A stretch of 61,921 nt of DNA, filler included, from Bipalium vagum (Eukaryota), in the NCBI GenBank assembly GCA_037834085.1. It is 3 parts of 3 records of this genome, joined end to end, with 100 filler letters (N's around TTAATTAATTAA, not from the genome) between each part and the next. Parts side by side here need not be neighbours in the genome. Positions count along the whole stretch, not along the records: positions 22,488 to 44,880 come from JBBMKC010221793.1; 2 more parts are not named here. The stretch is one strand, 5' to 3'. The notes below the pieces were generated by a model, which saw only the letters and a list, made by a program, of their open reading frames with translations, was not told the origin of the DNA and ran no database searches. This document shows, piece by piece, positions 2,813 through 59,280 of the stretch. Numbering within the stretch: position 1 is the stretch's first letter; every line of letters begins with the position of its first letter. Made by a program: the position numbers and the translations under genes.

Positions 2813-3129
2813 TTTTTATAAAATCTTTTTCATAAATTTTAAAATATTACTGCCATAATTTTCATTTATCTATGTAGTAAAACAAGAAGTCGAATGAATT
2901 AATTTAAATGTTGTCATATTTAAGTAATGTTTCATTAAAAATTGTATAGTTAAATTTTATATATAATTATTATGTAATTATATTGAAAAATTTGAAATAA
3001 TAATTTTGATGAAAATTCTTCATTAATTGTAGATAGATATCATTAGATATTAAATATTGTTATTTGTTATAATTATAATTGAGATTACATTTAACATTAA
3101 ATATCAAACCAAGTTCTTTACATGTTTGA

Positions 3130-5149: not shown

Positions 5150-5450
5150 ATATTTAATTTCTTCATTACTTCTAAAGCTTTTACTTGATATAAACAAAGT
5201 TTATCAATTGAGGTTTTAACACATTTACAAATTCGTTTGAGAATTTTTTTCTTTGATATAAAATTACCTCTAATTGTTTTACTAATTGATACATTTAAAG
5301 CAGTAAGAATTGCATTACCAACGGAAATATAAATTAGTAAACCAATTCCTAATGTAGAAACTGTTACTAAAGTTGCTGTTCCAATTGCATGAATTCGAAA
5401 TTAAATATATTATACCATATCTAATTTTTAATTTTTAATTGTTTTAATAG
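5150..5450 (-). pseudogene. Polinton-associated hydrophobic/TM protein remnant
   Basis: Reverse strand AIGTATLVTVSTLGIGLLIYISVGNAILTALNVSIS followed by a Lys-rich stretch; stops present. Confidence 0.45.
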
Positions 5451-6059
5451 ATCTTCTAAAACGCTTTTCTCATTTATAAAATTTTTAATTTTCAGTTTTT
5501 CTAATTGGTCATCCAATGGATTTGAAAATATGTCCATTTCTATTTTTAATTTTAATAATAATTTTTAAAACTTTTAACAGATGTTTTTTGTTAAGGTTTT
5601 CCATCAACCATGAAATAATTCTTATAAGTATTATACAACCCAAAAACGTGATAATTATTTGTTGATCAAAAATCTGTAACATTGTTGATTGTGTATTTAT
5701 TTTTATCTGCAAGTAATATTATTGTAAATTTACTTTTTAATAATAAAACTTTTTCTCCAACCAAATACCCTAACTTGGTTATATTGATTTCTAAGTTTCT
5801 GAAATTTATAATATCTCTTTTTGAAGATTTTTAAAAGGAATACCAATAAACAATAGGTGTAACTTTTTCATACATGTTTTTATAATCATCTTGTATAAGA
5901 AAAGTTTTTAATTTTCATATTAAATATTATTTTATGAAGGTCTCCATTATCATTTTTTATTTTTGTGATGGCATCATATAAAATTTTAATATTAATTTCC
6001 ACTGTTTTGAAATCTTTTAGTTTTGTATCTTTAAATCCAGTTTGGAATTTTTTGATTGA

Positions 6060-6425
6060 TTCAAGAAATGATAGAAATATTTGTCAAACTCAACATATTA
6101 TAGTTCTAGATTGTTTTCTCATTCTTTTAAATTTTTGCTCTAAATTTTTATAATACCCAACCCAATACAAGGAATTGTATTTTGATAATTAATTAGAGTT
6201 TATTCAAATTAAGTTCTTTTTACAGTAATCTCATCTTTCATTAAACGTTTTAAAGGTATTTCTAATGTTTAGCAATATCTATTAAATCAAAATTTGTGGT
6301 TGTATTAATTCCGTAATTGTACAAAATTTTTAGAAGTAAATGATTTTTGTAATTTAAAAATTTTAAGAATTTAATCTAAGAAAACTATTTAGTTTTTAGG
6401 GTCAAAATATAAACCATTCCTTATT
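6060..6425 (-). pseudogene. Adenain-like cysteine protease remnant preceded by a G-L-Y-F/L motif
   Basis: Reverse strand RIRNGLYFDPK, then TTNFDLIDIAKH...LMKDEI...LIINYQN...YWVGYYK (with frameshifts). Resembles the Polinton PRO pattern SNFDL..AK.L....M.DEL...IINL....HWV.Y.K. Confidence 0.6.
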
Positions 6426-6679
6426 TTACAATCGTAAGTTTATTCATACTTAATTTTGTAATATTTCTTTTCATTCTTTTTTTAGATTTCCCTAAATTTC
6501 CATATTTTAAACAATTTAAAATTGCATCACTTAATTCTTTTCAAAAATATGAGTCAAATCTAATCAACTTCCTGTGGGAGGTCAAAGTATAAATCTGCCG
6601 CAGTTTTTACTTCAGAAACTTCCAAGAGCTTCGCTCGCTTTTGGTTTCAGTTTTTCAATTTCTATTTTTGACTTAATTT

Positions 6680-6935
6680 TTCCTAACACTATTTTTGCGC
6701 TTCTTTTGCTTTTTGTAAAACTGTATCAACTCTATTAGCTGCTTCAACAGTTGTACCTAATTGCGCCTAAGATTGGAATTAAAGATATAAATTTTCGTCT
6801 TTTTTTTTCTTTTGCTACTTCAACTTCCTCTTTTCTTTCCTTAGTTATATTTTGAATTAAATAATATTTCTTACCATTAAAAGTAATATATTTAGATTTT
6901 CCTACATTATATATATTTTCATTTATTCCAGTCAT
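6680..6935 (-). pseudogene. Polinton small virion protein remnant with amphipathic FIxLIPILGAIG-type peptide
   Basis: ORF 6744-6935 ends KKRRKFISLIPILGAI; a shifted frame continues GTTVEAANRVDTVLQKAKEAQ. Resembles the KxGGFLPLIPI..A.G motif found upstream of PRO in Polintons. Confidence 0.5.
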
Positions 6936-7673
6936 TTTTATAGAAAATAATTTCTTATGATTAATAATAAATAAAATAATATTATATTTTGAACTTTATT
7001 GTTTTAATTAAATAAATATATTTATTCAATGAAAAATCAAAAATGTCTCATTTAAAAGATCACTATCAAGTTTATATAATAATAAAGTTTCAAAAACATT
7101 TTTATTTATCTTTGTTTACGACGTATTAAGCTTCGAATATTTAAAAATTCGAATAATTAATAATACCGAATATTTATACTTTTTCGAATCGTATATGATT
7201 TTTTTGTTAGATCTTTGTGTGTAGTTGAATATTTTTTAACAAAATTATAAGAGGTATTCTATTTTCTGTTTAATTAAGCTACATATGAAATTCGAAAATC
7301 ACGTTCAAAATTAAAACATCCACGAAGTACATTTTTATTTCATCAGATAGACATCTTAAAATCTAAAAACCCATTAATATTTTACAAATTAATTTATAAA
7401 CAACTAATTCTAAAAAACTCAACCTTACCTCTCAAATAACATCGTTGCAACTCATTTTTATAAAATCTTCTTAATATCTTCAGTCATTTAAATCTATAAT
7501 ACCATAAATAATAGGATTTGTGTAATAAATTGTATTTATAATAAATATTTCATCTGTCCATTTTATTGTGTAACCTTTTTCATATTAATTTTATAATTAA
7601 AAATTAGAACTTTATCACCAATACTGAAGCAAAGTTTTAGTTTTCAAGTATGAGTTCAAGGTTTCAACAACTT

Positions 7674-9229
7674 TATTGGATTAATATTTTAGTTTGCATT
7701 AGTATTTTCTGATAACTACGTAAGGGTTTGGTTCGACGTGTAATGCGAGATATGCGTTTTATTCTCGAAAATACTAACCGCTAACTCTACATAAATAGTT
7801 TAGCTTTAGGCTTACCAACTCCTTCAAAGCTAGTGTAACAAATGAGTATTCTAAGATACAAACTAAGATCAACTAAAACAACAAGAATTGTTTTTATAAA
7901 ATTATATTTTGTTAAATAAATACAAATCTTTCTTATCACCTCTTCCACTACAGGGTGTCTCATAAGTCCCAGCGGAAAGCAAACTTAAATATTTCTTAAG
8001 CAGATTGAGATATTTAATCGCTTGTTTTATAAAATTAAAGATAAATATTTTAATTTTTTTTTCATATAAAAAATATTTACAACAATTGTTCAAAATGACT
8101 ACCATTAACTGATATACATAAATTCATCCTTTTTACAATATTTAAAAATATGTTATAATAGTTTTTATTTCAGATTTGAATATCTTATTCTTTAAATGGC
8201 CCCATAAATAGAAATCAAGAGGAATTAAATCTGGTGAACCTGGAGCTCATCGAACTGAACTACCTCTCCCAATCCACCTGTTCGGAAAATGAGCGTCAAG
8301 ATACCGTCTTACATTTATTGAAAAATGCACAGGAGCACCATCTTACTGAAATATCAGAGACCGTACTTTGTACATTTTCATCACTTTAAACATAAAATAG
8401 TCTTGAAGCATTGATATACATATTTGGCCATTAACAATTTCATCTTCAAAGAAATACGGACCGATAATTTTATTTTTTGACAAAGCACGCCAAACATTTA
8501 CCTGGGATTTTTTTAGCAGTTTCAAAAGTAACACGTGGATGACTTTCTGACCAATATCTGACGTTATGTTTATTTAGTAATCCTTTTAGATAAAACGTTG
8601 CTTCATCTGAAAAGAAAATATTTTCCTGAATATCCACATTTTTTAACATTGCGACCAGGGTTTTTTTGCACATCTCAACTCTGTCTTGCAATTCTTCTTC
8701 ATATAATTTCTGCTTGAAAACCTTAAAGGGTTTCAATGATAACTGTTCTCTCATAATTCGATGGGTTGTTGTTCGCGAAATGGAGCAGGTGGTTGCAACA
8801 AATTGAACACTGCATTGTGGGTCACTTTTAATAACTTCACTCGTTTTCTGAACCTCATTATCAATGATCAGACTTGATCTTCAATAACGTTCACGATCTT
8901 CCACCGAGCAAATCTCACAAAAACGATGAAAAGCTTCTTTTATAGCACTTTCACTTGGTGAGGTTTTCCCAAATTCTGCATTTAATTTTACGTTTAACAA
9001 CACAAATTGAGTTGAATTTGGCCATTAAAAGTAATTAAAAGCCATTAAAATTCTTAACTTCAAATCAACAGGCATTTGCTAAATCTGAATTCAAAATATT
9101 AAAACAAAACTTAGACTTACATACTTGAATATTATATATAAAGAAAATTTCAATCGATTGAATTTAATGAAAGATATTTAAGATTACTTTCTACGGAGAC
9201 TTATGGGACACCCTGTATCGATCCCAACA
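7674..9229 (+). mobile_element. Solo LTR (about 290 bp once the rosa insertion is removed) with 4-bp TSD ACTT
   Basis: Ends TATTGG...CCAACA, flanked by ACTT at 7670-7673 and 9230-9233; AATAAA near the 3' end. Removing it rejoins integrase as LYNEVVETLNSYLKTK. Confidence 0.6.
7951..9215 (-). mobile_element. Near full-length rosa-type (DD41D) Tc1/mariner transposon, inactivated
   Basis: TIRs CAGGGTGTCTCATAAGTC / CAGGGTGTCCCATAAGTC with TA TSD. Transposase about 9075-8077 with FFSDEATF, FQ*DGAPVH and SPDLIPLDF; 41 residues counted between the second and third Asp. Confidence 0.93.
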
Positions 9230-22387: not shown

Positions 22388-22487
22388 NNNNNNNNNNNNN
22401 NNNNNNNNNNNNNNNNNNNNNNNNNNNNNNNTTAATTAATTAANNNNNNNNNNNNNNNNNNNNNNNNNNNNNNNNNNNNNNNNNNNN
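22388..22487. other. Artificial contig linker (44N-TTAATTAATTAA-44N)
   Basis: Seen directly; the 12-mer has stops in all six frames. Confidence 0.98.
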
Positions 22488-23962: not shown

Positions 23963-26900
23963 ATGGAATATTCCAATCCCGGATCAACAGCAAATCTGCC
24001 ATCGTCTAATAATCACATGTCGACAGAAGGTGCTCACAATTACGGTGATAATTCCAACGAGACCAGAGTTTTATCACCGGCAACCTATAGCCATTTCGAT
24101 GAAAAACAAGCATATCAATATCAAAATCAACCATCATCTCTCAATCAACTTTTACAAAACAATCAGTATGGGCCTTATTCTAATTTATCTTTGCGTCCAC
24201 CTGTTTCCAGTAATTATCATGCAAATTATCGAAATTACGAAAACAATTGGAATTTATCCCGATCTCAAGTCGAATCAGCTGTAAGTAGTAAATGCTATTA
24301 CTTGACTTTGTAAAGTAACGTCGTGACTAATTTAGCGAATATATTATTCTCAATATCAAGAATCATATCCCCAAAATACCAATGATGTCAATTCCAAAGG
24401 GGACAAAATTAAACCCAGCGATTATAATATGATTTCCAGTGAACTGCAAGGTAATAATAATAATTACAAATCGGACAATCGAAATTACCAAAATAATAAA
24501 TTGGATAAATCGAAGACGAATTTTTCCGATTGGAAACATAAAAACGAAACGATAAGTTCCATGGATGCAAATAATAAAGATAATATGATTAAAACCGATG
24601 TTGAGGTAATAATTGTCACATTTGATTTTTGTTTAAATTATGCACAAATTTAAAATTGTTTATTCTGATTTAAAAATTATCATTGATTTAAATTGTCATT
24701 GATTTTTTCGATTTTAACTACTACATAATTTAATGAATATTGGATTTTAGATTAAGCCTGACAAGCAAAATTCCACCGATTCGTCTGATTTAACTACGAC
24801 GACTTCCAAATCAGATTCCAATGTCAATACTGGTTTTCATTTAAATACTTGTAGCGATTTGTCATTAGATAAAAACGATATGCACAATGGACCTAATTAT
24901 ATCTATGAAAATAAAATCAATCAACAATGTAAAAACAAACATTGTGATAAATTTGTTGGAATTTTAATGTTGAAAAATGTTATTTTTATTTAGCTCAAAT
25001 GAAACCACAAACGTCGGCCGGTTATGATAATCCAATGTACAATCAGATGATGATGCAGCCTCAAAATTCAGCATATTATTCACAATTTCGTTACACCAAT
25101 CCTCCACCACCCAACAATACTCAAAATTACATTAATCCGAATAGCAGTGCAATAATGTCTAGTTCCATGTCGCGACCGCCATTGTTCAATTATCCAAATT
25201 ACATTCAAATGTCCAATTCCGCTCACGGTTACGGTGGATATCATCCGTCAAATATTTTACACCAAAACCGTCCGTTAAACGTACACAGCCCGTTCGTGTC
25301 AAGAGGAGACCAGTCTCCGTTCTCTCCCAATCCAGATAATTATATGAACGGATCAATTGCGTCACATCAAAACAACAATAGTGGAAGTTTAAAAGAATCG
25401 ACGGAAAGAAAAGGTAAAATGAATTGGATATATAACGTCTTTTTTGTTTATTTGCAATTCTGAAGAAGAAATCAATGTTCTTGTCAATATCAACCAAGAC
25501 ACTTCCAGCGCCGGTAGCAATTCCAACAAATCGGTCAATGCCAGGTCCTGTGCATCGAAAACCAAGAACGCACAAAAGGTTGGAATTGATTTGTTATGAA
25601 ATTTAATTGATAAAATCAATCTATAATAGTAAAAAAAATTCATTGATCAATATTTATTTGGTCTTTGTTATAATTTGAGTTTTTTTATGAGTATTTGTCA
25701 AGTTAAACTTTTATTTGTAATCAAGTTTTTCGAAAACAAATTGATCACCGTTAAATATTGAAATTGATTGTAAACTAGCAATCAATTTTTTTATGTCGAT
25801 CAATTCAATTCATTTTTTGCTTTATTGAGAATTTGTCTTGAATAAGGATTATCCAATAGCTTAATGTTGAAATATCTTAATTAATTGATTGTTAATCTTT
25901 GAATGTAAAATTCTCCTATCAGTGTCAATTACTGCTTTGATATCGAATGATTAATTCTTTCAAAGGTTTTCGATTATTATTATTGTAAGCAGAATATTGA
26001 TTCTTTTTTGTTTAATGTAATTAATAAATGACTCTTAAACCTCATTTTTTGTAGTAAACATTTGGTGATTTTTCTTTAATTTCAGCACCGTATCCCATTT
26101 TATGATATGCAGTGGTTTTCGTTGACATTTAATAATAGAGAAAAGGTTTCTTGTTCGAATTCTTTGATTTTGAATATTTCAATATACAAGCCATAGATTC
26201 TTCCTCAAAAGTTTTTCGAGCAATTTCAATTTTTATATAATTGATAAGAATTGAAGCTTGGTTTTTCTAGGAATTTTCATTAATATGTTTAGTATTAATT
26301 TTTCTTAAAGATTGATCTTTTTATTCTTTAGAATAATTACAATAAGTTTTAATAAATTATTACTAAGTAATACGAAATTAATCATTTTTTAAGTGGTGGA
26401 ATACTACAAATAACCAATTAAAATCTGTTTCATCACGATAATTATTGAAATGATAAATTATTTAAGATAATTAATTCATTCGTTTTTGATATTTTTTAAA
26501 AAATATGAAATTTGGTTCAATTAGGAACATGAATTAATTATAATTTATTTTGATTGATAGACTGAGATATTTTTAATTTTATCAACATGATTTTAAATCG
26601 TCTAAATGGATTAATATTACATTTTTCGTCAAATCTCTTAATGGGAATAATATTTTTAACCTTTTTTACCGTACTCCATTAAATTACTTTAGTTTTTTAA
26701 AAATCAATTAATTTTCTGATTAACTGTGAATTTAATTTTAATTTCTCTCAATGAACTGTTTAAATATTTTAATCTTTTACAAAAATTATAAATATATAAC
26801 CAAGGTACATAATATATTTACGGACGTGATGAGTTATTGAATAATAAGATTTAGGTTTTTAAAATGTTTCTTTGAAAATAGTTTAATTATTTTGCATTGA

Positions 26901-29900
26901 TAATCAATACATTTAATTTTAGAATGAAAGCCATCCTGCCACTCCAGTAAGCAATACTGTTCCTTCACCTTCACAGACTAGCATGAGTTCGATGATTGAT
27001 GAAAACGAAGACAGTGTTAGCAGTTTAGGGCCCAGTGAAACGGGCTTACTTCATCATACATCATTGTCCAATCAATCACAATTCAGCCAACATCAAATGA
27101 CTCCAGCTATGTCCCAGAATCACTCCATTATTTATCCTCAATCCTATCCCAATAACCAAGCTCCTCATACAATGATAAGTTCTTTTCCGAGTCATTTGCC
27201 TCCACAACACAGGCCTTTCACGCCCAGCTCCAATATGATGTCTAATCGCCAAATTTATCATAATGAATCTCAGATCAATAATAGTTGTTATCAAAAATTG
27301 ATGGAGCTGGGAAACGAACCTGAAAGAGGACCTTGGATTGAAAGGTATCTACGATTCATGCAAGAAAACAATACTCCTCTCAGTGCTGTACCAACCGTTG
27401 TTAAGCAGCCCCTTGATCTGTTTCGATTATATCACGCTGTTCGCGAACGAGGAGGCCTGTTGAATGTGGTCAAAACCAAGAGATGGAAAGAAATTTGCTT
27501 GATTGTAAACGTCAATGCTTCAGCATCTGGCGCGTATACGTTGAGAAGAAATTATATCAAGTGTCTTTTGGATTATGAGTGTAAGTTTGATCGAAACGGT
27601 GTCGATCCTGGACCAATATTACAGGAAATTCAAAGTCTATCAGACAAAAAGAAAAAGAGCACTTCTAGGAACACGGGGTCGTCACCATCTTCCACAATTT
27701 CTTCAGGTCAGACATCACAACATAATTCAGAATATGGTAACACCTCAACTCCCAGACCCCCAATAGCACATCCTGATTTTAATACTCCTCATCCTTTCCA
27801 TGGTCATAACCCATACAACAATGTTTTTCATAACGGCTCCATGATACATAGAAGCCAAATGCATTATCAAGCTCAACGGGGACAAAATCCATACCCGGGT
27901 CCATACACCGGTCCACGAATGATGGGTTTCAATTCTCCAGTCAATGCAATACATCCTCATGTAAGATATGATTCTAATATCCCTCAAAACTGGAACAAAT
28001 CAATCGTCATGAATCAGCAACAGCAACAATGGTCCAGTTCAGGTTCCAGTAACAATTCCACGCATCCAATGCAAATGCCAATGTCGCCGGGAGCTCCATC
28101 CAATATTCCAAATGTATTCCAACAGTCTCAACAAAGTGAGTGTTTAGTAAATTACTAATTTCCAATAAAATGCGTATAAACTTTATAAATTTAAATAGTT
28201 GGTGATAATTTTGACATCAATTCAAAAGATGCTTCCAAATTGGAACCTAACCTGGCTCGTTATACGACTTATGACAACAATAATAAACATTTGGATAATT
28301 TTAGTGTTGATAAAGAAGCCGATAAAATTGAAATGATTTCTAAATCTGACTCTTCAACCTACTACAATAATCCTTATATAGAATATGCTGGGCCAGAAAT
28401 ATGCGATTATAAAAATATGGCTTCTGCTAACACTAGTCAGTTTTATCCACCAATGCAACAATACCCATGCTTCACGTACTCACGACAATATAGTTCAACA
28501 TTTCGACAACCTGTTCCTAGCTCACTTTCATTTTCATCCTATTATCCACCAAATCCTAATTATATTTATCCGCCCAGTGGTGCTGTTTCTTATTCTTCTA
28601 ATATGATGACTAATTCCCATCACGTAACCAATAGTGTCAGCTCACATTCCTCTACACCGTACTATTCTAGTAAGTTCAGTAGAGCATCAGTCGCACTTTT
28701 GAATGTCGTTATGTTAATGTTACCACCTGTTTGTTTATTATATTTATATATACATATATCATATAATATGCATGTTTGTTCTCAGTAATAAAAATATTAC
28801 ATATTGATTTTTTTTTGAATTTCTAATCAATAATGATAATTAATAATAATTAATTCAGTTGGAAATATTCAAGAGCATTCTCGAAGAATGGATTGGAAAT
28901 CAAATTACGGTGGAATGCCTCCTCCTCCTCCACCACCTCCCAATGTTCAATCATCAAATAGACCAAATCTTCCCAATACATCTCAAATTGGATCTGGTAA
29001 TCATCAACAATATCATTCAACTATCTCTCACTCTAATTACTCTAACCAAGCCTCAAGCTCGTACAGTCAACAAAGACCAATAAATCCCCAATTACCATCA
29101 AATTTAATGTCTATAAATCGAAACATTCTTCAACCTACCAATAATAATTTGGGTGATCAAATGAATTACATTAACAAATCTATAGGGCTCTCTTCGTCCA
29201 ATGCTATACCGAATTCGAATCATAGTTTGTCATCTAATTCCAGTTATAATAGGTCGCACATGGAGAATTTGAGGATAAATCAAACTTTTGAGCCATCAGT
29301 AAGTTTATTTTTGTTTCATTAATTAGAAATGCTTTATCAGTAAAAGTATTTTTTATGCAAAATATATTTTAAAAATTATAGTAAATAATGGTTGGTGGTA
29401 AGTGCGAGTGTATTATAAAAATACTTTTCCCCAAATAAATTAAAATTTAAAGCCACCAGAATTCAGAGATAATTATTAATTCTAATATTTCCTCTTTTTA
29501 TGAGGCATTTGTGTACTGCAAATAAAAATTCAATTAAGATTTAGTTGACAATAAGAACAACACCGATTTATTATCATAGCAATTTTCTACTTGTTGACAC
29601 GAATTGTCTTGGATGTCAATTTTGCAATTTATGGTAATTGAAGTAGGAAGGAAAATATAATGATTATATTTAGATATTTAAGAAATTCTGTCCTACATTA
29701 ATCATACTATGCTTTTGCATTAGGACTACAATTTTATGTGCACTAACATTTAAGGATATTGATTTCTCATAAATTAAACTATTGATTTATTTTTGTATTA
29801 TTTTTTTACTATTAAAAAATCAATATTGATTGAATAAACTTTCAGTTTTTGTTATCATTTCATTAGCTATTTTCAAAATTTTCATGTCTTCTATATGCTT

Positions 29901-32326
29901 TAGAGATAAGCATTTTGTGAAATAGATTCAAAATTGTCGATTAGTATTGACAAAATCTGTGTTCCGGTCGTAGTTTTAGCATGTGATTGTAAAATGTCTA
30001 TGATATTGTTTATTAAACTGCCTTGTATGTGTATTTTTGGTGTTGGTAGTGGTGGCAGTTGTCTTTGTATTATTAATTTTAACAATAGTCTATTTATAGG
30101 CTTATTTTCTGATTCATTTTTTATCGATTATTTAAATGTTTACACCTTTTGTGGTTTAGAAATCAAATTCTCAATTTCTGAAACGATATGTTAGTCTCTT
30201 TCCTCCTAATTCTGTTGAGGCAACTCAACCAGATTACAGCAAAAAAAGAAAATTCCGTACCAAAGATATTAGTAAGAATCGTTAGCTGAAAAGATTTTAA
30301 ACTTCACTTTTCAACTTTAGAAGTATTTAATCCAACTAGTGTTACCATGGCTCTAAAATCCGGACTTGTTACGGAAATTAATTGGGCATTAAACTCTCTG
30401 AATATTTGGTCCAGGGATGATACGTTTTTTGAAAAATTGAACTTGAAAAATCTCATGCCAATGTTTCAAGCTTTAATTGACGTATGGCGTAACAGTCTGG
30501 GAACCATATTTGGCAGAAATCTGTTCATTAAAGAGTTGGAACTGCCAGTCATTCTCGATGAAAATGTTCACAATAAAATGGATGTCAAGATTTTTCTCAA
30601 GAAAATAGGAATGGTTCTGAAAAACAGACAATTTAAGCAAGAAAAAGAAGTTAGTACAAAATTTTCCATGAATAAGCCTGAAGATGACTATAAATTTGCT
30701 CAAGACAAAGTTATTGATTTATTACATGGAACTAAATATTCAATGGACCGAAATGGGTTATCTGTTAAGTTGGATTTAAATGCAAAATTAGAATATGCTC
30801 TTGACGGAGATTCTAATCTTAAGGATTTTGTAATCAAAATGTGTTCAAATTCTTCTGCACCAGAAAATGAAAATAATACAAACTACTTTGATTTTAAAAT
30901 GCAATCTCAATCAAAAACGTGTAGTCTTAGTGATCTTTGGAATATAGGAGGGTCTGATTCAACTTATCATATCTTACCCCCTTTACTGTCACAAAATAAA
31001 AATACCAATAACGAATGGTATTTACAGCTGGCAAACTGTGATATTCCTCAAATTCTCGACACCTCTGAAAATTCCTGTTGTGAGCCACCAGAAATTAAAA
31101 GAAGTAGATGTACATCTCCACATTCACCGTCGTCTTCGAATCCTCCAAATTTAGAGCACGAAAATCACATAGGCACTCTGAAACTCATCGAAAGTGTTGA
31201 TGATGTCGAATGCTGTCGGTTACAAGCTAAATCAGAAATAATCAATGATGGTGAGACTCTTTTTTTCAACATTGAAGACTCTGATGAAGAGAAAATGTTG
31301 AGATGTATCAGTGTGTCGAATGCCATAAGAAATTTGAGTTTTCTCAATGGAAACGATCGATTGATTGGGTCTAATCGTGCTACCCTAGTGATCCTTGGTA
31401 GATTACTTTTGCTCGGTCATGAACACAGTACAGGCGAATGGCCCACTGTAAATAACGAAAAGGAACGCTGGTGGTTAAAGTGGATCGATGATATTCGGGA
31501 ACATGTATTTGTCACCTTGGTTAACATATCAAGCTATTTGGAGCTCAGTAAACATCATGAAATCATTGTTCGGCCAATTATAACAGGTTTGCTTCATTGG
31601 CTAACATGTACCTCTGCCGCTGCAGAAGATTCGTTACCAAGTCACAGAGTTTTAGGTTGTCGCAGATTGGCATTGGAAAGTCTAATGAGGTTATGTGTTC
31701 ATGAAAAGAATATCGATTATATTCTGTCAACCAGTAAAGGGTCAGATTCAGTGATACGAGAACTATTTAACTATTTGACCTCATCCTTTTGCTATCCTGA
31801 TGTTCAAATTGTCAAAGAAATGTCATTAGCAGTTATGCATTATTTGTCTATGGGGGGTGAAAATGGGATTGGCTGTATTTATTTAGCCAATGCACAGCCA
31901 AATATAATAAGCGGTTTAATAAGTTTCATAGAAATCACTGAATCTCAAATTAGACACGTTGTTGATAATATGGGCATGGAAGCCTTACAAGCGAGGCCAG
32001 AGCTGATGGGAACGAGTCTGGAATTTTTAAGACATTCAGGTGCTCTGTTAAATCGAATAGCAACCTTTGAAGTCAACAGAAAACACTTCAGTCGAGATCA
32101 TGAAATTAGAATGTTAAATTTGGTTATATCTACGGTCCTGGATCAAACTGTAGCCCAATCAATATCCGGTGTCTTGTACCTTCTCAGTAATCATGATGTA
32201 AATCAAAGTAAACCAGAAACATGTAACAAATTCAAGTCCTTCTTAACTTTTAATGATTTGAGCTTCTGTGAGAAGGATAATGCGGTGTCGTCAATACACG
32301 AAAGCGAGACAAATTGTGCAAACTGA
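23963..32326 (+). CDS. ARID1: ARID1/osa (BAF250) SWI/SNF subunit. Exons 23963-24280, 24336-24605, 24751-24928, 24994-25413, 25466-25578, 26923-28135, 28199-28669, 28859-29298, 30160-30271, 30321-32326.
   Basis: ARID domain (KLMELGNEPERGPWIERYLRFM...KQPLDLFRLY.AVRERGG...W...LRRNYIKCLLDYECKFDR); FPPNSVEATQP motif; BAF250_C region (MALKSGLVTEINWALNSL, RCISVSNAIRNLSF, LMGTSLEFL). All nine introns are GT-AG and in phase; 5541 nt in total. Confidence 0.95.
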
Positions 32327-33739
32327 TAATAAAAAGATATATTTAGCTGTAAGTAATTCTGAACCTGGAAGCCGGTGCTTTTCTTTCATCATAAATAACA
32401 AATTATTTCAATTCCAAAAGTTGTACTGTAAATATTTTTATTTACTGTTAGAATTTCTGATTTTGTGTTAAATTCTCTCTTAATTGAAAGATATTTATAC
32501 TGAAACATTTGTTTTAGTATGGTTATGTAACTTATTAGATTCTATCCGATTATTTAAGATAAATGTAAAGGATATCAAATAATATTCAGTTCATGCGATG
32601 AGCTTATTAAAATAGTTAAGTTGAATAAAGTTAGTGTAATATTAAGATGGAGTTTTATTGAAATCTTAAATTTGTTTTACTTCGTTGAGGAAAATGCATT
32701 TCTTATCCTTTGTGTAAATGTATAGAACGTTTTACTGTCTTTGTAGGTTTAGTGTTATAATTATGATGGGTTTTTATAATTTTCTGATCGTGTATTATTT
32801 GATAATGGAAATTATTTAATTTGAAATGGAGTCTTTTCATGTATAATATGTAATATAAATGTATGTGATAATGATTTATTTTGACTAGTTTTGTTTTAAT
32901 AATCTAATACTAACAAATATTATGTAAAAAATTTAAATAATCTTTAATGAAAAAATTAAATATTTGCATAATATTTATCTTTATCAATTAAATTATTTAA
33001 AGGATATTTTCGATTCGGTTTTTCAATTATCTACTTTGTAAAAATAAATAAATTATGCATTGGTAAATTTGAAGTCATTTTGGAGATCCTTTGCAGTGAA
33101 TGGAGATCAACGCATTTCTATTTTCTCAAAAGTGATCTTTTGTAAAAAAGAAAGATGTTTGAAGTTTGTTAAACTTAGTATATCTATTATTGTTAATCAA
33201 GAGAAGTTAGTGTAAAAAAGTAATAAGTAAATCTGATGAGTAATAATTTACTTTTATACATGAAAAAAGTATATAATTCGAACTTTATGTAGTAACTGAA
33301 TATGAGATGTCAAAAGGGTTAACCATGTAAAAAAGTAAATTAATATTGTATAATAAGAATAATTTCAAAAACTAACATTAATATTACTCATTAGTTATTT
33401 TATAATTATTATAAAATGTTAATAGCAATTATAATTTGGTGATCATAAACTAATTTAAGGGTGAAAGTGATAAAAAAAATATTTACTAAATGAATTGTTA
33501 ATGAATTTTGTTCAAAAGAAGGTTTGGAAGAAAGTGTTTAATTTTTGGTGCACGTTACTCAAACAATTTTCGTTTCCAAAGTTTTAAATTTATTTATTAA
33601 TGTTACGATCTATACAGTGCTCCAACTAATTATTGCCGAACAAAGAAAGTGCACATGTTTCAAGATAGCAGCATATTTTTTGAACTATTATTATATTTTT
33701 CATTAACGGAGACAAACACATAAGGAAAATGACCGATGG

Positions 33740-36000
33740 AAAAGATGGTAATGGACGTCGTTGGGCTATTCTCGAAAGCGATTTCAGGAGATAAGTTTAT
33801 AATAGTTTTTTGTGACTACTTTATAAAATGACCGGAAGCATCTACAATGCAGAATTAGAAATCAGTAAGTATAACGAAGATTTTTGGGAAAATATTGTTT
33901 TCAGGTACAGACAACAGAACGAATTTCATAATTGAATTAATCGGCATTTGAGAGTTGTTTGTCATCTGGAAGTTCAAAACGTCATCATACAGTCCGCAAA
34001 TAGATTACTTAGTGGAGAGATTTAATGGAACACTACTCAACATTTTATCGCATTATAATAACAAACACCAAACAGTTTGGGACGTATATATATCGTCATG
34101 TTTGTTTGTGTACAGAAATTCAGTCTATCCAACAAAGGGAAAAAAGTTTTATTTGATGTATTTGAGGAATAACAACATACCGATTTGGAGTATCTAGATG
34201 AAGAGAATTTTAAAGTTTTATTGAGAAAGGACTGCAATAGACATGAAAAAATCGAGACTTAATATAAAATATGGCCAGGAAAAATATGTTACGATATTAT
34301 TTCACCATGAACCCTGTTGTAATCTTAGCTCGAAACGTTACTGACCCCTTCACTTGTTCCTATACGTATACGCAATTGAATGAATCAAACAATTATGAAC
34401 AACACTTTATTGCTAAAATAACAATACAACAAAATCTTTCCAACAATCAGTAAAATGTCTACAATCAAATGTTTTTGTATAAAACGAAGGATCAAATAAT
34501 AGCACGCTGAAAATCGAATAATAATAAAATGTCAAATCGAGTAAGTGTCTATTCGTTAATTATAAAAAAAGAAACAAAAAAAAAGCATAACAATTTAAAT
34601 ACTCTCACTGCTTGAGACGACAGGTCCAAACGGTGGTTAGCTGAGCCCAATCCGATCCGCTCAGAAACCCCCTAACCGCACAGGACCCGTCGTGTGCTCC
34701 TGTCGCATGGAGGGCATCAAGATAAATTACTGTTTCAGCAGTAACCTTCGGATAATAGCGGGTTCTCTTCTGACAGCTCTTGATCTTTCTGACAACATTA
34801 ACAATAATAACGGCTTAATCCTTCTTCTGACTCTAGTAATAGTAAGACGGCTTGATCCTTCTTCTAATAACAATAATAGTACGGCTTGATTCTTCTTCTG
34901 ACACTAATAACAATAATAGTACCAATAACAATAATCGTAACAATTCTCGATCACTTTCCTGTGGCAATCCACTGCGGATTCCAACTCCTTATATACTATT
35001 CTGATCAGACGATCAATCAATCGTAGAACAGCTTTATCATTGGAGAATGTCAATTCCCTTTTTAGACCGATAATTCTAAATCGCTCCCTCCTTCCGGACC
35101 CTGATCTAATCTTGGCAATTTAGGTTCGCCATTGTCAAGATTAGATCCTTTTTAGAAATAATTAATGGCCCATTTTTTACTTTTTAATTAATTAATTAAT
35201 AATTATTATTAATTTATTTCTGACCCTCTTGTGGTCTTAATAATTAATTGATAATAATCAATTAAAACCTTATTGCGGTCTCTACCATATACTTTACAAG
35301 GGTTGGCAAAGATGTGTCCTTGGCTAACCCAACAACGATATGACAAGACGGTGAAGGAGCATAATTTCAGAATTGTTTCACAAAGTGATGATAATGGCAT
35401 TGTAACCGAAACTTCAAAGAATGTTTAAAAGTCTATATGCGGTAGAAAGAGTGACACCAACTAAACTATCATTAGTGAGCACTTGAAAATTAATATCGTT
35501 CATAGTGCAGTGCATGCAAATCGATGTAAGAAGTGGATAGAACAGACCAAGGAGTGATACCTATAATGATATCGAGAGTAGCGGAATCTAGTAGCAAATA
35601 TTAAGCCATCAAGATGGTTTAGGTTCCCATTGGTAATCATGATGATATGTCGACTAGCATTAATTATTAAGTCTGTTTGAGCACTATAATATCACTTTAG
35701 GAGAAGAGAACGAAGTGCGATGACGAGAAGGAAAATGAAAAAAATATTGAATTTGGACCTAAGCTTCACCAAAACGAAAAAGATAAAGAAAAAGCAGCAC
35801 TGATAAGGATGTGATGAAATAATAACATAAAATTTGATGTAGATGTCACAATATGTTTTATATTGTCAATAAAAATTTCGTTTAGTTATTTGAATTAATA
35901 GATTCGGAGGTCCGAATCTCACCAAAATCGGAATGTCTGTTGGGTTGGTCAAAGACACACCCTTTTGAATTGTAAAGACCATCAAAGAGCCTGGGTTATA
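33740..36000 (+). mobile_element. Decayed Gypsy LTR retrotransposon 3' part: integrase, GPY/F-like module and start of the 3' LTR at 35938
   Basis: MDVVGLF...FIIVFCDYF...TSSYSPQIDYLVERFNGTLL...WDVYI..CLFVYRNS. After the inserted LTR: RYDKTVKEHNF...KLQRMFKSLY.V...VHANRCK. TGTTGGGTTGG at 35938. Confidence 0.85.
34295..35334 (-). mobile_element. Solo LTR (1040 bp) inserted antisense into the Gypsy integrase, TSD ACGA
   Basis: ACGA at 34291-34294 and 35335-35338. Reverse strand starts TGTTGGGTTAG and has TATATAAG near 34990 and AATAAA near 34410, with internal tandem repeats at 34760-34930. Excision restores ML-RYDK. Confidence 0.8.
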
Positions 36001-37519: not shown

Positions 37520-37875
37520 GTAATTAACCTCGGCGTCGAGGTTAAGAATAGTACTCCATCGTTGGAGTTACTGAATTCTTTTGTCTCGGCGTGGAAGCAA
37601 AAATAGCAATTAGAGGCTATTGAGGGAGATAGCCATCTCGAAGCATAGGGATTGGTGATCGTAGGCCAATCTCTATGACTATATAAAGACGGCTATTCCC
37701 ATCAATTCGCCGTCAGGAAAAACTACAGAGAACTACGAATTCAGGACGTCGAAGCAGGTATATCAAAATTTCTGTGGACATGACAATGCAGAAGGATTTC
37801 ACAAGGGAACCCAGCGAGCTTGGGAACTCCTAGGTGACCTGAGAAGGGCCTAGAGGGCGTTTGGGGACCCTTTGA
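37520..37875 (+). mobile_element. LTR-like promoter repeat, homologous to 56356-56930 (- strand)
   Basis: Shared blocks TAGGGATTGGTGATCGTA, AATCTCTA.GACTATATAAAGA (TATA) and TGGGAA.TC.TAGGTGACCTGA.AAGG.CCTAG. Confidence 0.75.
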
Positions 37876-37908
37876 ATCAGTAGAGAAACCAATGAGTATC
37901 TAACAAGA

Positions 37909-38300
37909 TTGGTTAAAAGATACAGAAAGCAGCACGAAGAAGAAGAATATGATGAAGCAACCAGAGAAAATCAAGAGAGACTATTGGGATTGTTGGAGTT
38001 AATGGATCCAGGTATGGAGACAACAGGTAAACCGGATGATTTGACCTTAGAAATCTATGCAAAAATAATGAAAATTTTGGAGGATGTGGAGAATTTTGTG
38101 AATGAACCAGACAGTATTAGCAACGAATTATGGCTGACATAGTTATATGAAGGTAGAATGGATAAAGAAAAGGCCATGATGGGCATAGCCTTAATCTTAA
38201 AGAGAGTCAATAAAATAAATCGGGAGTTGAAACGGCAGAATACAGAAATTTCGATTTGAGGAGCAAATAAGACGATTGGTGAATTTTTCGGACCGTGGAT
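37909..38300 (+). pseudogene. Unknown acidic/helical ORF remnant downstream of the LTR-like repeat
   Basis: The ORF frame continues past an in-frame stop (NELWLT*LYEGRMDKEKAMMGIALILKRV); purine-rich, coding-like bias; no recognised motif. Confidence 0.4.
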
Positions 38301-38504
38301 GCAATTAAATCAAGCGTGGTATAGTTTGTTTGGAATGAAGAAAGCAACGAATCAGAAGCAGGGTCAACTACAGCGGGACGATCATAAGAGATACCACAAG
38401 AACAACCAGAATTCAGACAATAAGCAAGGCAAGAAGAAAATCAGGAAGATGAACGAAGAAAAACTCAATCAGGACAAGGATCGAGGTCAACGAACGATTC
38501 GTGG

Positions 38505-38957
38505 ATGCCCAAGATGTTAATAATGGTTATGATGTTTTTGAATATGATGAGCAAATCGAATGCATTGGTAGGATACGATTGTATGAAGGCGAAAATGGGA
38601 AATATATATTCATTGTTAGATTTGGAAGGGTGCCCAGAAGCCTACTCGACGAATTTAACCAGCAGAGACGTAGAGAACCATATTTATAAGGAGACAGAAT
38701 TTAGAAAAGCAAACATGAAGGAGGGTATCGTGAAGAAGGCAACATTCGAGTACTATTGCGGATTTCACAGAAGAATAGCCTTCTTGGAAGCGAAATTGAT
38801 ACCAGTTCCCATGATTGTGAATTCGGAAAATTGCGAATCAGCCTTTGTAACAAGGAAAAGAATAAAAGAAGCAGGACTTATAGTAAATTCAGAGAAATAC
38901 CCATCTACTGAGAACAATTTCAATAGCGTTAGGACAAATATGTGGGAAGAACAATGA
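38505..38957 (+). pseudogene. N-terminal fragment of a chuvirus-type glycoprotein / env-like protein
   Basis: Signal peptide MPKMLIMVMMFLNMMSKSNA, then LVGYDC...YSLLDLEGC...EF...YYCGFH...VNSENC. The Cys/motif spacing resembles chuvirus-like glycoproteins (LIGYDC...SLLDV..C...CG.HSH...C). Confidence 0.7.
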
Positions 38958-39119
38958 GAAACTTGTCTGGACCGAAGCATGTAATTTGGCTTTCCAAGAA
39001 ATGAAAGAAGCACTAAGAAACCCAGTGTCAACATTTCCAGATATTAAAAAAATTTATCTTAGACACTAGACACAGAGAGACCATAGTGTAGAAAATTAAA
39101 ATATTGTATATAAGTATAG

Positions 39120-39210
39120 AAAAACTACATAAACTCGTAGAGAGATTACCTAAAATATGCGTCACCGTCATCAAAGCAGGTGGTTACATCAATGAAAATT
39201 AACTATTAGT
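39120..39210 (+). mobile_element. Tc1 C-terminal fragment
   Basis: KLVERLPKICVTVIKAGGYINEN*. Confidence 0.6.
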
Positions 39211-39449
39211 ATTTTGCGTGTTAAAATATTGTTAATATAATCTTAATAAAAAGTATTTTAATTTGCTGATGGTATGTCCGGAATTAGAGAAATTTCGTGT
39301 GCATACTATCATATTAGATATCATGGTGTCAAACTGGAGAAACGTAAACCAGATACATTAACTCAGTGTTAAGGGACAGTTGGAGAGAATTAGAACAGAG
39401 GGCCAATATTTCTATTGTGGATATGACAGGATCGTTGTCGGATGGGAGG

Positions 39450-41559: not shown

Positions 41560-43675
41560 TTAAGAATCAAGAGTGTTTAAAAAATCAATGAATAGAATAA
41601 CAAAAATGTTTTAAAAGATAATTTGAACTATTTGATTGACTACAGCTGCTTGGCCGATGCCTCTTGATACTGGTTCTCTTTCGTTTGGTTGTAATTTATT
41701 GAAGTTGAGAACTGCAGATCTCATCAACAACATATAGAAACGTTCAAGGAAAGGGAGGAGAGGAGGAAAATAACAGACAATATATATAATGCTAGTCATT
41801 CAATCAAAGAAGGTACATCAGTAAGGTATGACCAGGGAATAGAACCAAAAGATTTTACTCCTGCGGCAGGGAAAGATACATTAGAAGAAGTCCATTGATG
41901 CAACAGAAATGACCATGAAGAGAAAGAATGTTTTACGAAAATTTGAGGACAGTATGTCACAGAGCCAAACAAAAATTGAACCTCAGAAACAACGATGCAG
42001 ATAATAGATATCGAAAGATGAGGAAAAATACTAAGTATGAAACTGGAGATAGGGTAAATATTATGAGCATGAAGGGATAAATCTAGTCAGATGTAATGAA
42101 AAATTACGATGTGCGAATGATAGCAAAATGAAGGTGAAAGGAACATTAGAATGACAAATTTTATAGTTGCGGATAAAATAACATCAAACATCATTGGCGG
42201 CATAGAGCTACAGAAAAAAATGGATTCGAGCTGATCATAGCTACCGTGGAGGATGAAAGCTTTCACACATGCAATATCGAAGCAAAACTTTGAAGAAAAG
42301 TACACAAGAAAGAGAGTTTTTGAAAAGCTTGACATCTCTAAATGTGGCAGAGGGATCTAAAATGGGTGAAGTAATAAGAAAAACTGCAGAAACTGCTTTA
42401 TCGAAGATATTAAAGTAAATCATTCCAAACAAAAATATATGGTAAAATATTCAGATTACGGATAGCCTACAAGGACATTACACGATCACTTAAAAAAAAA
42501 TCTATCACACCACAGTTTTAGAATTGGATGAATTAAACTAGAATACTAACAGGGAGCCAGTCAACTGAATGCAGAGAGTTAAAATGTGGAATGTGTTCGC
42601 ACTAACAAATGGTACACGAAGAAGCAAAGACAGAAAAGATAGAGAATGGTAATGATAATAACGACAAAGTAAGACCACAAATGACAGCATGATAGCGAGA
42701 AAATTAGACAAACAAAAGAAAGAGTTTTAAAAGGACAAGATTCAAAATTCATCGTATTGAACAACGTTGTTCTTAATAGTAACGGACGAATATGGACACC
42801 AAAAGATAGATGTGAAGAAATGATCGAAGAGACGCATAAACAACTGTGCCATGTTGGAATAGAAAAACCGTTGAGATATCTACAAAATAGATGCAAAATG
42901 GTCGAAATGAGTACCAGAGTAAGGACAGAGTTGCTGGGTATGCCAAGGGACCAAATCAGTGACGACTAGAAACCACACGAGAAGATATTCATCGACATGT
43001 AGTCCGCTAAAAGAAACGCGATGTCAGAATAACTTCATGGTTGGAATTTTCGACAAATTTAGAAAATACATTTCTGTAACAATAGTGGCCAGAGAGGTTG
43101 AGGACACAATATGGTACACAATTTGAGATAAATGATTATCGGGTTTCGAAGAAACAAAAGAAATCCATGTGGATTGCGGCAGATCATTTGAATTAAGAAA
43201 GAATTCGCACCACGAGGAATCTTTATGTCCAGTCCATATCTCCACCAAAAGAATGGGGTAATAGAAAGATAATTTCGAACAGTTTTTGAATACTTGAACT
43301 AAGCAATGAAAGAAAGAAAAATTATCGATTGGGCTAGTATATTCCCTGAAGTCGAGTTTGTATTAAATGCAACGTTGCAGAAGACAATGGAAATTAGTCC
43401 AAACTAGATCGTGTTGGGAAGAGGAATCAATAGAGACAGATGGATTGGAATCTAGAGAAGCCATGGGAGAAAAAGAAGAAAATTCGCCATCAATAAATAA
43501 GTACTGGTTATGATCGAAAATAAAACGAATAACGGTGACAGATTCGAGGGTTCATACCACGCCACTAACTAACTACACTAACTACAAAATTAAAAATAAA
43601 AAATGATTCCAAGAAATGTGGAAAACATTAAGAAATTTTAAGAATTAATTAAGAAACAGAGGGAATTGAGGATTA
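41560..43675 (+). mobile_element. Decayed, internally deleted Gypsy element (gag/pol remnants, integrase)
   Basis: IWTPKDRCEEMIEETHKQLCHVGIEK; KPHEKIFID; IHVDCGRSF; NGVIER*FRT; DWASIFPEVEFVLNAT...ISP; DRFEGSY; purine tract near 43655-43664. Confidence 0.82.
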
Positions 43676-44880: not shown

Positions 44881-44980
44881 NNNNNNNNNNNNNNNNNNNN
44901 NNNNNNNNNNNNNNNNNNNNNNNNTTAATTAATTAANNNNNNNNNNNNNNNNNNNNNNNNNNNNNNNNNNNNNNNNNNNN
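44881..44980. other. Artificial contig linker (44N-TTAATTAATTAA-44N)
   Basis: Identical to 22388-22487. Confidence 0.98.
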
Positions 44981-55045: not shown

Positions 55046-56355
55046 GTAAACATTTCATGACATATTTTAGAGTTGAAAAACAGAAAGATATGTCATAAGT
55101 GTTTGTCAAATATTTTATTTAATTGAAGTGCTATTTATATAGTTCATATAAACAAAACGATTTTTTGAATAGAAAATTATTCAGTTTGTAATAAGTATGA
55201 GATAACGCATTAATTTTTTGCCAGTTTAATAATATTTATTAAGTAATAAAAATATGTTAAATTTTTTTTATATAACAATAATAAATATATTAAAAATGAA
55301 AATAAAAATTAATCAGCCGACTATTTATAAGGAAGAAATTTTTTTGATATAAATCTAATGTTTTAATCAAAAATATTTAATAGTATCATTAATAAATAAA
55401 ATAAAAAATCTTTAATGCTAGGTCTTATTGTTGTTTTTTTTAGCATTATAAATTCAGACATTTTAGATAACATTCCGTACATTTTCTAATCAGATCTTTG
55501 TAATATGGAGGAGATTAATGAAATTTTTTAACGACTTACTTCATTTAAAACAAACTATCATCTCTCTTGTGAACGACATCAAAAAGTGAAAAAGGCATAA
55601 ATTTTGTTTTGCTGTAAATAATTTTATGTCGAAGTAACGCTGTTCCAATCAATTTTATTCCGGATTCCAGCAATTAATAATTTTATCTACTCGCAGTAAT
55701 TTCAAATTTCTTTCCTTTTTTATTTTTAAAAATAAAGACTGACCAGTCTTGGACTCTTCAAAAGCATTTAATCTCGTTTTTAATTTGATTGCTATTTGTT
55801 ACATATGATAATTATTTATCGTTATTAATAGAAACTTTCATAAAATTTATTAAGTTTTATTTCTTATTAAAAATTTTATTATTATTACATTTATTATTTA
55901 GCTTAAAATTTTCATAAAGTAACAACAAATTTTTATCAATTTAATGTTTAAAAACATAAAATTGTTACTATTATATTTAACAAACTAACTTTCGCTGGAA
56001 TCTAGATAACTACTCACTTTCGTTCGAAAATCAATAAATACTCACTTTCTAAGATTATGTTAGTTTCGCTTACACAAATTTAACTCTATTGAATCAAAAC
56101 CCTGCAATAAAACCATTAAATTAAATAAAAAACAATCACAGTAAATCTTTCAACAAAAACTTGAATTTATCGTTATAAATATACAACCAAGTAATAAAAA
56201 CCAAAATCGATTCAATGTCTGAATATCAAAATCAACTCGAAAATGATCGTTAAGTTAAGCACAAATGCATATGAATTTAGGATAATTTATGATAAATGTC
56301 ACGAATAATAATTAAAAAGGAATCACGAAAAGAAAAATAGGAATTAAAAGGTAAT

Positions 56356-56930
56356 GTATGACAACCTCACCAGAAGCGACAAGGTTTTCCCGTGTCGTCC
56401 GCTAGGTCCTTTTCAGGTCACCTAAGAATTCCCAAACTTGCTGGGTCCCCTTGGTAAATCCTTTTGCATGTCGATCATCATGGATAAGAAAAATTACTGA
56501 AATCTTTGTCAATTTTTCAGCAGTATATCTTTAACTAATGACGTCCGGAATCTGCAGTGTTTCCTCAACGATTATCTTCGGAAATAGGCAATATATCCTC
56601 TACGAATAACCTCGGAAATATGACTTTTTGTCCTACACTGAAAATATTTGTCTTCACTGAAAATGCTTGTCCTTCACTGAAAAATAGTTTTCTCTTTTAT
56701 TTTCTGGGTGGCTTTATGGGAATTACCGTCTCTTTATATAGTCGTAGAGATTAGAATACGATCACCAATCCCTACGCTTTGAGACGGCTATTTCCCCTAG
56801 TAGCTATTAATCCTAACTTTATCTCCTCACCGAGATAAAAGTAGTCCAGAAATTAAAATAGTTCATTAAAAATAAAATTTAAAAGCAATATATCATTATC
56901 TCGACGAAAAGATTTTGATATATTGCTTTT
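56356..56930 (-). mobile_element. Solo LTR-like repeat of the same family as 37520-37875
   Basis: Reverse strand ends GTTGTCATACA; TATA block and other blocks shared with the 37.5-kb copy; three internal TTTTCAGTG(A/T)AG(G)ACAA repeats. Confidence 0.75.
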
Positions 56931-57199: not shown

Positions 57200-58175
57200 T
57201 TATTACTATTAGAAGCATTAGGATATTGCCAATCATAAGTAATTGCACTGTACAATTTCAATTTTGACATTAAATCTGCGAAGACTACTCGTAAAATCAA
57301 TGAAGCATTCGGTATGATTCGATACAGAAAAAGTGCACACCGTGTTAAGCTGATTTAAAATATTCAGGAGTGGAGATGAAAGCCTCTAGAGTGATATAGG
57401 TCGTTTATGTCTCTGTGCAGTTGACAGTGATGAAATAAAGATCTTGTTTGAAAGAGAACCACGTTCAAAGACTATAAAGCTTGTCAAAAAGTTAGGATTG
57501 CATCACCAATTTTTCTAGACTACCTTCTCAAACTTGCAAAAACATCGAAGGTCGGTAAATTGGTGTCCCGTGAATTGAAAGTTTTTCTGAAAATCGTCAC
57601 TATGAAACTCAGAATCAGTTCGCAAAGCCGAGATTGCAACAAAATAAAATCATGATGGACAGTTTAGTGATCAAAGGTAGGTCTGCATTTTCTAAAATCA
57701 AGGAAAAAATATTACATCAAAAACATATTACAAAGAAATTGACGAAATGCACCGGAAATTACATTCTTTGTTTTACGCATTAGTAAATAGAAAAATATCC
57801 AATAATTCTTCTCAATAATACCCAATCACATGTGCGAAACAAAAACTACAAAATCTGAATTATTATATTTTGGATATGAAAGTCTACCTCATCAAGGATC
57901 TATCGAGTATTGACTATATTTATTTAACATCTGACAAACGTCCTGCAAGAGAAAGTATTCTACAGCAATAGTGCTTTTCAGAATGTATTCTATGAGTTTA
58001 TCAATTCCAGATAACCGGATTTCTACGTCATCTGAAAAAAAAAGTTTATTTCGCGTTGGCAGAAATATGCTACTTATCATGGATCATATTTTAAATGAAA
58101 CATTTTCTTGTCTTCTCAGATTTTTAGTAATTTTTTGTCGATAAAGAACGCATTTATTTTTGGCCAATCAGATAT
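57200..58175 (+). mobile_element. Decayed near-full-length mariner
   Basis: ALYNF...TRKINEAFG; FRSGDESL; KEIDEMHRKL...LVNRK; GYE.LPH; RWQK; TIR-like TTATTTTTGGCCAATCAGATA. Confidence 0.8.
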
Positions 58176-58199
58176 TGTTTTGCTTATCAATAAAAAATT

Positions 58200-59280
58200 T
58201 TTGGTAAGAAATATTTTCTTATTGAATCAAATTTAAAAAATTTTTTTTCAGTTCTGACTATAATTAAACCGTTAAGTACTTTGTGTGGGGTTTCTCTTAA
58301 TTAACCATATGTTATCTTAAAAATATTATATAATCATCATTATTATTAAAAACAGAATACATAGAGAAATTCCATAATTAATTACATTGGTTGTATTTTT
58401 TCAAATCAAAAGATTTTATTATTCAATTCTTAGTCTTATAACTTTGAGTATAACCAAGCTCCTAGTGAGATCTTCATAAAAAAAACTCTTATAAGCAAAA
58501 TATATTATTTATAATTAATGGCAAATAATAAAATATTAAGTAATTCTTTAAAAAAGTGTTTAATCGATTTTTGTCTTTATTATTATACAAAACTGTAAAA
58601 AGATAAATAAAAAGACAAGAAATTTCATAAAGCATTGCATTTCTTTATTTTGAATTGTTTGTGAAATCTTTTAATTAATATTAATATAATTTTATAATTA
58701 TTTATACTGAGGGTTTGGTCTTAATAATAAGTTTATCAAAATTGAATTTCGCCTATAGCGAAAACAGTGGAAACGTTTTAGGTCACCTAACATATTATTT
58801 TGTTTATCATTTAAAGTACATTTTGTAAAATATATTTTTGATTAAATCAAATTTTATGAAATTCTCTTTTGTCCTGACTACGAAAACTGCTAAGTACTTT
58901 TTGTAGGGTTTCTCTTAATTAACCACATTTTATCCTAAAAATATTAGATAATAAACATTATTACTGGAAGAAACAAAATACATAGAGAAATTAAATAATT
59001 AATTAAATTGTCTGTATTCCTTTAAGTCAAAAGATTTTATTATAAAATTCTTAGTTTCATAACTTTGGCATCTGTGAATATTACGGTGATCATAGTGAGA
59101 TCTTCATAAAAATCAATGATCAGGTAATTTTTTCTGCTAATCGTAGCATAACCGAAAAATGCTAATTATAATTAAAACATTTTAATGAAAAATGAAAAAA
59201 TATTAAGTAATTCTTGAAAAAGGTATTTAATCGATTTTTTTGTTATTAATTTACAAAATATAAAAGGTCAAGAAAGAAAA
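58200..59280. repeat. Diverged tandem duplication, period about 620 bp
   Basis: TAAGTACTTT..GGGTTTCTCTTAATTAACCA, ATACATAGAGAAATT, TCAAAAGATTTTATTAT, TAGTGAGATCTTCATAAAA and TTTAATCGATTTTT recur in order at about 58270-58575 and 58890-59240. Confidence 0.85.

Follow-up and report, generated by a model that had tools for sequence, protein, structure and literature searches.

Locus and surroundings

The DNA analysed, called the window below, is a stretch of 61,921 nucleotides (filler included) from Bipalium vagum (assembly GCA_037834085.1). It is AT-rich eukaryotic sequence throughout, with runs of N carrying a TTAATTAATTAA spacer at 22388–22487 and 44881–44980. An LTR-like repeat is followed by a decayed polyprotein piece, by the start of a chuvirus-type envelope glycoprotein and by a likely pol remnant, and a second copy of the repeat lies on the opposite strand (Table 1). 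The element copy is dead: gag is missing, two stops interrupt the polyprotein piece, env lies in a different frame and is reduced to about one-fifth of its length, and about 40 codons of pol are left. The order of the surviving parts, i.e., Bcl-2-like domain, glycoprotein and pol remnant, is, as far as the alignments tell, the order found in long homologues. An unannotated multi-copy stretch (39068–39305; summed depth 489–1,598) follows directly behind the pol remnant.

Table 1. Features of the element copy and of the second repeat copy, in window coordinates
Feature	Position	Strand	Evidence
High-copy LTR-like repeat, TATA box 37680–37687, 3' end cut off	37520..37880 (ends approximate)	+	Second-copy match, read depth
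Decayed polyprotein piece: Bcl-2-like helical domain (~37972–38331) and low-complexity linker, two in-frame stops	37876..38520	+	27% over 147 aa to P0006, homologue profile
N-terminal ~135 residues of chuvirus-type envelope glycoprotein, hydrophobic leader, truncated	38505..38957	+	PF24664; gB-like class III fold predicted from homologue P0011
Likely Ty3/Gypsy RT-RNase H connection remnant	38947..39068	+	38% over 39 aa to P0019, PF17919 below cut-off
Second, diverged LTR-like repeat copy, longer inside, end ...TACA	56355..56850	-	Alignment to focal repeat

A host ARID1/osa gene with several exons occupies approximately 24000–32330 on the plus strand (best of 9 matches a tapeworm protein at 272 bits, the next at 191), with the element about 5 kb further downstream. 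The tapeworm match points to a likely flatworm host, and the element family to a probable triclad. A decayed Gypsy integrase core (33733–34182, plus strand) precedes the LTR-like repeat by 3.3 kb in the same orientation; it matches the integrases of the env-bearing polyproteins described below at 46–48% over 160 aa (E 1e-33 or better) and could stem from the element's own family or from a relative of it. It is followed by a GC-richer non-coding stretch (34580–35230, minus strand; TATA-like motif near 34990), which resembles a different LTR-like repeat and has no second copy within the window. A second, more decayed Gypsy-like pol region (41700–43600, plus strand) contains an Integrase_H2C2 match (E 0.0012) and an integrase-core-like frame and gave no match to the env-bearing polyproteins. 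Elsewhere in the window a frame at 8470–8880 (minus strand) looks by eye like a Tc1/mariner transposase, with no Pfam match at E 0.1, and a diverged 620-bp tandem duplication lies within 58172–59265. Searches for related loci gave nothing real in viral contigs, prokaryote genomes or metagenomes; metagenome match L001 was rejected as a chance bacterial match and an 18-nt repeat motif in one phage contig as chance. Rfam returned two matches only, far below threshold.

The envelope glycoprotein

A sequence-only reading of this DNA had picked out a signal-peptide ORF with a motif pattern typical of chuvirus class III-like glycoproteins. All four motifs (LVGYDC, YSLLDLEGC, YYCGFH, and ENC) are present behind a hydrophobic leader, and the chuvirus-type assignment is borne out by Pfam family PF24664 (Monjiviricetes_fusion), which aligns residues 3–135 of the ORF with positions 4–136 of a 653-position profile (E 2e-13; 49.7 bits against a curated cut-off of 27). 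The copy was also rightly called truncated: the first fifth or so of the profile is kept, the complete ectodomain and the transmembrane anchor are absent, and the stub finishes in an out-of-family tail at a junction. In a tree of 27 env N-termini, which omits 12 of the 39 sequences (11 too short over the region, one without a match), the window copy was unplaced.

The fold was modelled on a long homologue, P0011, which is 34% identical to the env stub over 105 aa. The AlphaFold model of P0011, made with 31 sequences, had a mean pLDDT of 75.6 and a pTM of 0.45. With Foldseek every PDB match listed was herpesvirus gB (best E 4e-14, at a low TM of about 0.3), and an unbiased fold search placed gB chains at ranks 1–5 (Z 11.0, rmsd 9.7 over 385 residues). 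Among viral models the top match was the glycoprotein of Tacheng Tick Virus 4 (E 6e-40), followed by chu-like, qin-like, and xinmovirus proteins; the identity of P0011 to the viral proteins listed was at most 23%. Atlas matches comprised PF24664, rhabdovirus G, gB, and gp64 clusters. When solved structures were searched by sequence, P0011 yielded only weak Bcl-2-family matches (best E 0.01) among the 60 listed. Because the P0011 model matches gB as well as chuvirus-type glycoproteins, the env is predicted to be a class III fusogen, as had been proposed. It has its sequence family and predicted class III fold in common with chuvirus and other Monjiviricetes glycoproteins (PF24664; Tacheng Tick Virus 4 G) and with gB, but differs from these in that the glycoprotein of the window family is embedded in a retroelement polyprotein.

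The carrier of the glycoprotein

An exhaustive search with the env stub recovered 36 relatives at E ≤ 0.001 among 1.84 billion representatives, including the longer homologues of which a word-seeded search had found none among 127 candidates. The domain scan covered 19 of the 36, mostly the longer ones; PF24664 was listed in all 19 and stood above the cut-off in 18. A retroviral protease lies downstream of PF24664 in five of the 19 (P0004, P0009, P0015, P0016, and P0019), followed in P0016 and P0019 by RT, RNase H, and integrase, and a CCHC knuckle precedes env in two (P0002 and P0004) and is lacking in the window copy. P0037, a distant homologue of 4844 aa, carries env, several proteases, ankyrin repeats, RT, RNase H, and integrase. 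P0003 and P0010 are fused to unrelated host domains, and these fusions are probably gene-model artefacts. P0019 is labelled as a Flavobacteriaceae MAG protein, yet it is an env-pol retroelement polyprotein and probably represents animal DNA in a bacterial bin. The protease, RT, RNase H, and integrase domains of the homologues agree with the earlier suggestion that an LTR-retroelement family carries a chuvirus-type glycoprotein as its env.

Classification of the RT was done on the homologues and gave a Gypsy-type domain set: those with pol contain RVT_1, RT_RNaseH_2, RT_RNaseH, Integrase_H2C2, and rve, and in P0016, P0019, and P0037 env lies upstream of a Gypsy pol (PR-RT-RH-IN). Neither Peptidase_A17 nor DUF1759, which we take to be BEL/Pao-type Pfam families, occurred in the 21 proteins scanned. 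Domain set and order identify the carrier as Ty3/Gypsy and not BEL/Pao, the superfamily to which the sequence-only reading had looked for precedent. A BEL/Pao element with a chuvirus env does have a published counterpart in Anakin, BEL/Pao-chuvirus hybrids of mosquitoes in which a glycoprotein of the same family likewise serves as LTR-retroelement env (Dezordi et al., 2020, PMC7642597; also PMC10084718). Anakin differs in superfamily, host and gene order: BEL/Pao env genes are described as lying downstream of the polyprotein (PMC7642597), whereas env is upstream of pol here. Given this order and the Gypsy domain set, an Anakin-like origin is extremely unlikely.

More than 30 in-frame residues precede the leader in 20 of the 38 relatives aligning to the stub, many of the other 18 being short fragments that are uninformative on leader context. 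The hydrophobic leader of the "signal-peptide ORF" is therefore likely internal to a polyprotein, and env is likely not a free-standing gene with its own start but a part between the Bcl-2-like domain and pol. A pair of hydrophobic segments brackets the ectodomain in P0011, P0016, P0019, and P0037, as would suit a putative topology in which Env faces the lumen and Gag and Pol the cytosol, with putative processing between them. P0016, P0019, and P0037 run 500–1,600 residues past the integrase; their tails show an apparent second leader-ectodomain-transmembrane unit with no family assigned, and those of P0016 and P0037 also hold further protease-like copies.

The pieces flanking env

The co-oriented ORF upstream of env, for which the earlier reading had no identity, is present on the plus strand as a single frame, but it is not intact, being broken by stops at 38140–38142 and 38257–38259. 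It aligns to the pre-env region of P0006 (27% over 147 aa, E 2e-8). This region gave weak Pfam Bcl-2 matches in six of six chosen homologues (E 0.0009–0.2, all below cut-off) and none in the window frame itself. With a profile built from seven homologue pre-env regions the window frame reached 30.4 bits, compared with a maximum of 8.4 for shuffled sequences (1000 made, 982 reported), and no other part of the window gave a score. At the structural level, residues 1–85 of the P0011 model match the Bcl-2 family with a middling Z of about 7 (rmsd 2–3 Å over about 78 residues); the model of the window frame itself is poor (pLDDT 45) and has two Bcl-2 family chains at Z 5.1–5.2 amid unrelated helical matches. 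On the strength of the profile score, the frame is best read as a decayed Bcl-2-like domain. A weak ubiquitin-like match was found in P0002.

Behind env, a piece that the sequence-only reading had not noted, 38947–39060, can be aligned with the RT-RNase H connection in P0019, P0016, and P0037 (28–38% over 39 aa; P0019 at 38%, E 1e-4 in a 1.5-kb target), with PF17919 at E 0.035, below cut-off. The piece is likely a weakly preserved Ty3/Gypsy RT-RNase H connection remnant, and its membership of the same family as env is putative. In the three homologues this connection follows the aligned env part at a distance of about 1,100–2,400 residues, and the lack of such a segment between the env stub and the pol scrap points to a large deletion. 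One contig of run X1 covers 38812–39166 without differences, so the env-pol junction exists as DNA, though X1 may be the source sample.

The surviving 150-codon open frame, with a Met and a leader some 820 nt behind the TATA box, is also what would be expected of an isolated chuvirus glycoprotein EVE, or of a short secreted glycoprotein domesticated under an LTR promoter, and the closest single match, P0001, likewise starts at the equivalent Met. However, the top relatives with context are all retroelement polyproteins, the Bcl-2-like and pol-like pieces flank the stub in family order, the tail with which the stub closes, at a junction, is foreign to the family, the long ORFs of the window include no chuvirus N or L gene nearby, and the stretch is multi-copy in run X1. 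Such an insertion or domestication is very unlikely.

Relation to published elements

The layout of an env within a Gypsy polyprotein is already published (PMC6431247; PMC13524379). Platyhelminthes errantiviruses are described there with the order GAG-ENV-POL and only HSV/gB-type ENV (Chary and Hayashi, eLife 2026, PMC13524379); the nine intact flatworm elements include six in S. mediterranea with 1–215 copies, and a chuvirus-like glycoprotein beside gypsy pol is described in arthropods (PMC13524379). Ty3/Gypsy affiliation, env before pol, a gB-like class III env and a flatworm host are what these elements have in common with the window family, but the published ones are intact whereas the window copy, from a diverged family, is a pseudogene with deletions (PMC13524379). 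Against the env of Smed_errantivirus_4 (a row in supplementary file 2), 32 of 64 residues are identical, as counted by eye, and TFEYYCG and FLEAKLIP are common to both (PMC13524379).

Burro, or GYPSM1, comprises giant Gypsy elements of Dugesiidae, more than 30 kb in size with LTRs of about 5 kb in total, an ORF of about 4,900 aa (4,873 aa in Burro1) and BIR/RING/MATH/ankyrin cargo; decaying fragments occur in Dugesia japonica (Arkhipova and Yushenova, 2019, PMC6431247). Its gag, ubiquitin-like and BCL-2 parts are followed by an env that lies in frame before the protease and matches mononegavirus fusion glycoproteins (PMC6431247). The window family is likened to Burro through the published description of these elements. 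In both Burro and the homologues a Bcl-2-like domain stands directly ahead of an in-frame env, this frame being broken in the window, and the ubiquitin-like domain that precedes BCL-2 in Burro has a weak counterpart in P0002 (PMC6431247). The Burro env was there likened to gypsy Env, of the baculovirus/paramyxovirus F type, whereas homologue P0011 is predicted to fold as class III (PMC6431247). BURRO1 is derepressed on piwi knockdown, and a second-hand report gives it an anti-apoptotic role (PMC8532177; PMC13465017).

Smed_errantivirus_1 and 2 span 14.8 kb (PMC13524379), which fits the 4,873-aa ORF of Burro1 and suggests that these may be the same elements. Neither "Bcl" nor "Burro" occurs in the main text of PMC13524379. 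In the literature searched, a body weak on subscription papers, we found neither an explicit statement that the Burro env is class III nor the link between this env and the gB-type env of the Smed errantiviruses.

The LTR-like repeat and its tie to the element

The repeat matches its second copy in two blocks, 37578–37735 with 56841–56685 (75%, E 8e-23) and 37786–37859 with 56469–56396 (84%, E 7e-17), and its local score of 219 compares with a best of 57 in 200 shuffles. The TATA box, TATATAAA, starts at 37680. The repeat seen by the sequence-only reading is thus real, but the copies do not pair: the second one lies on the opposite strand, 18.5 kb off in window coordinates with the filler join at 44881–44980 between, and the two are therefore not a flanking LTR pair. 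The second copy, likely a solo LTR, terminates in ...TACA close to 56355 and is not followed by a primer-binding site.

Depth and contig data come from run X1, the only run with the stretch, and summed depth is not equal to copy number. Summed depth was 33–50 over the unique flanks, 412–7,985 over the internal parts and 29,000 and 37,000 in the two core repeat bins, the neighbouring AAT tract being deep too; the internal parts are clearly multi-copy and the family is repetitive. Loose ends occur in 25 contigs behind 37856 and in 45 behind 37859, and by eye they resemble the end of the second copy; the focal repeat thus breaks off before its 3' end is reached, at the start of the polyprotein piece. 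A 2033-nt contig matches from 37894 onward only, and among the 8 of 2,504 pieces and 15 of 41 joints listed no contig joins the repeat to the polyprotein elsewhere.

It is rather probable that the repeat is the 5' LTR of the element, brought against the polyprotein by a deletion. It is also conceivable, at somewhat below even probability, that it is a solo LTR or another high-copy repeat of an unrelated family abutting a dead env-bearing Gypsy fragment, in which case the arrangement of a promoter behind which the gene lies would be an accident. The repeat may belong to another family because, at about 0.4–0.6 kb, it is short for a Burro LTR (PMC6431247) and because its summed depth is roughly 4–90 times that of the internal parts. 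The many contigs that depart from the window sequence at 37856–37859, the late start of the 2033-nt contig and the presence of other Gypsy debris in the window point the same way. On the other hand, repeat and polyprotein piece have the same orientation with no spacer between them, the repeat is cut just before its 3' end exactly at the polyprotein start, as a deletion from within a 5' LTR end would give, and the same copy has a second deletion junction, from env to pol. Solo LTRs are also commonly more numerous than internal parts.

Interpretation

The stretch very probably represents a likely planarian Ty3/Gypsy LTR retrotransposon of the Burro or GAG-ENV-POL errantivirus kind, in a copy that is dead and has lost internal parts. 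It retains, in order, a Bcl-2-like domain, the start of a chuvirus-type env (class III by prediction) and a weakly preserved piece of pol. Intact relatives would encode one polyprotein in the order gag, (ubiquitin-like), Bcl-2-like, leader, fusion ectodomain, TM helix, protease(s), RT, RNase H, and integrase, an order pieced together from domain scans of several partial proteins. With a hydrophobic segment on either side, the ectodomain would pass into the ER lumen and Gag and Pol would remain cytosolic. Env released by cleavage would be available to budding particles, and host-cell apoptosis would likely be dampened by the Bcl-2-like part. The window copy is too decayed for any of these roles.

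It is tempting to speculate, though rather improbable, that the species harbours its own short-LTR, high-copy Burro-like branch of true enveloped retroviruses, intact copies of which still bud particles that pass from one planarian cell to another. If this were true, a class III fusogen and Pol would come from the same polyprotein as Gag and an anti-apoptotic protein of Bcl-2 fold, and the Burro env, once likened to F-type gypsy Env, would be the gB-type env of the Smed errantiviruses. Taken singly the locus matters little, since elements of this kind are already published and the fragment is dead. What is gained is one more flatworm family, together with a small clarification, namely that the planarian env between gag and pol would be of chuvirus/gB (class III) type and lie behind a Bcl-2-fold domain.
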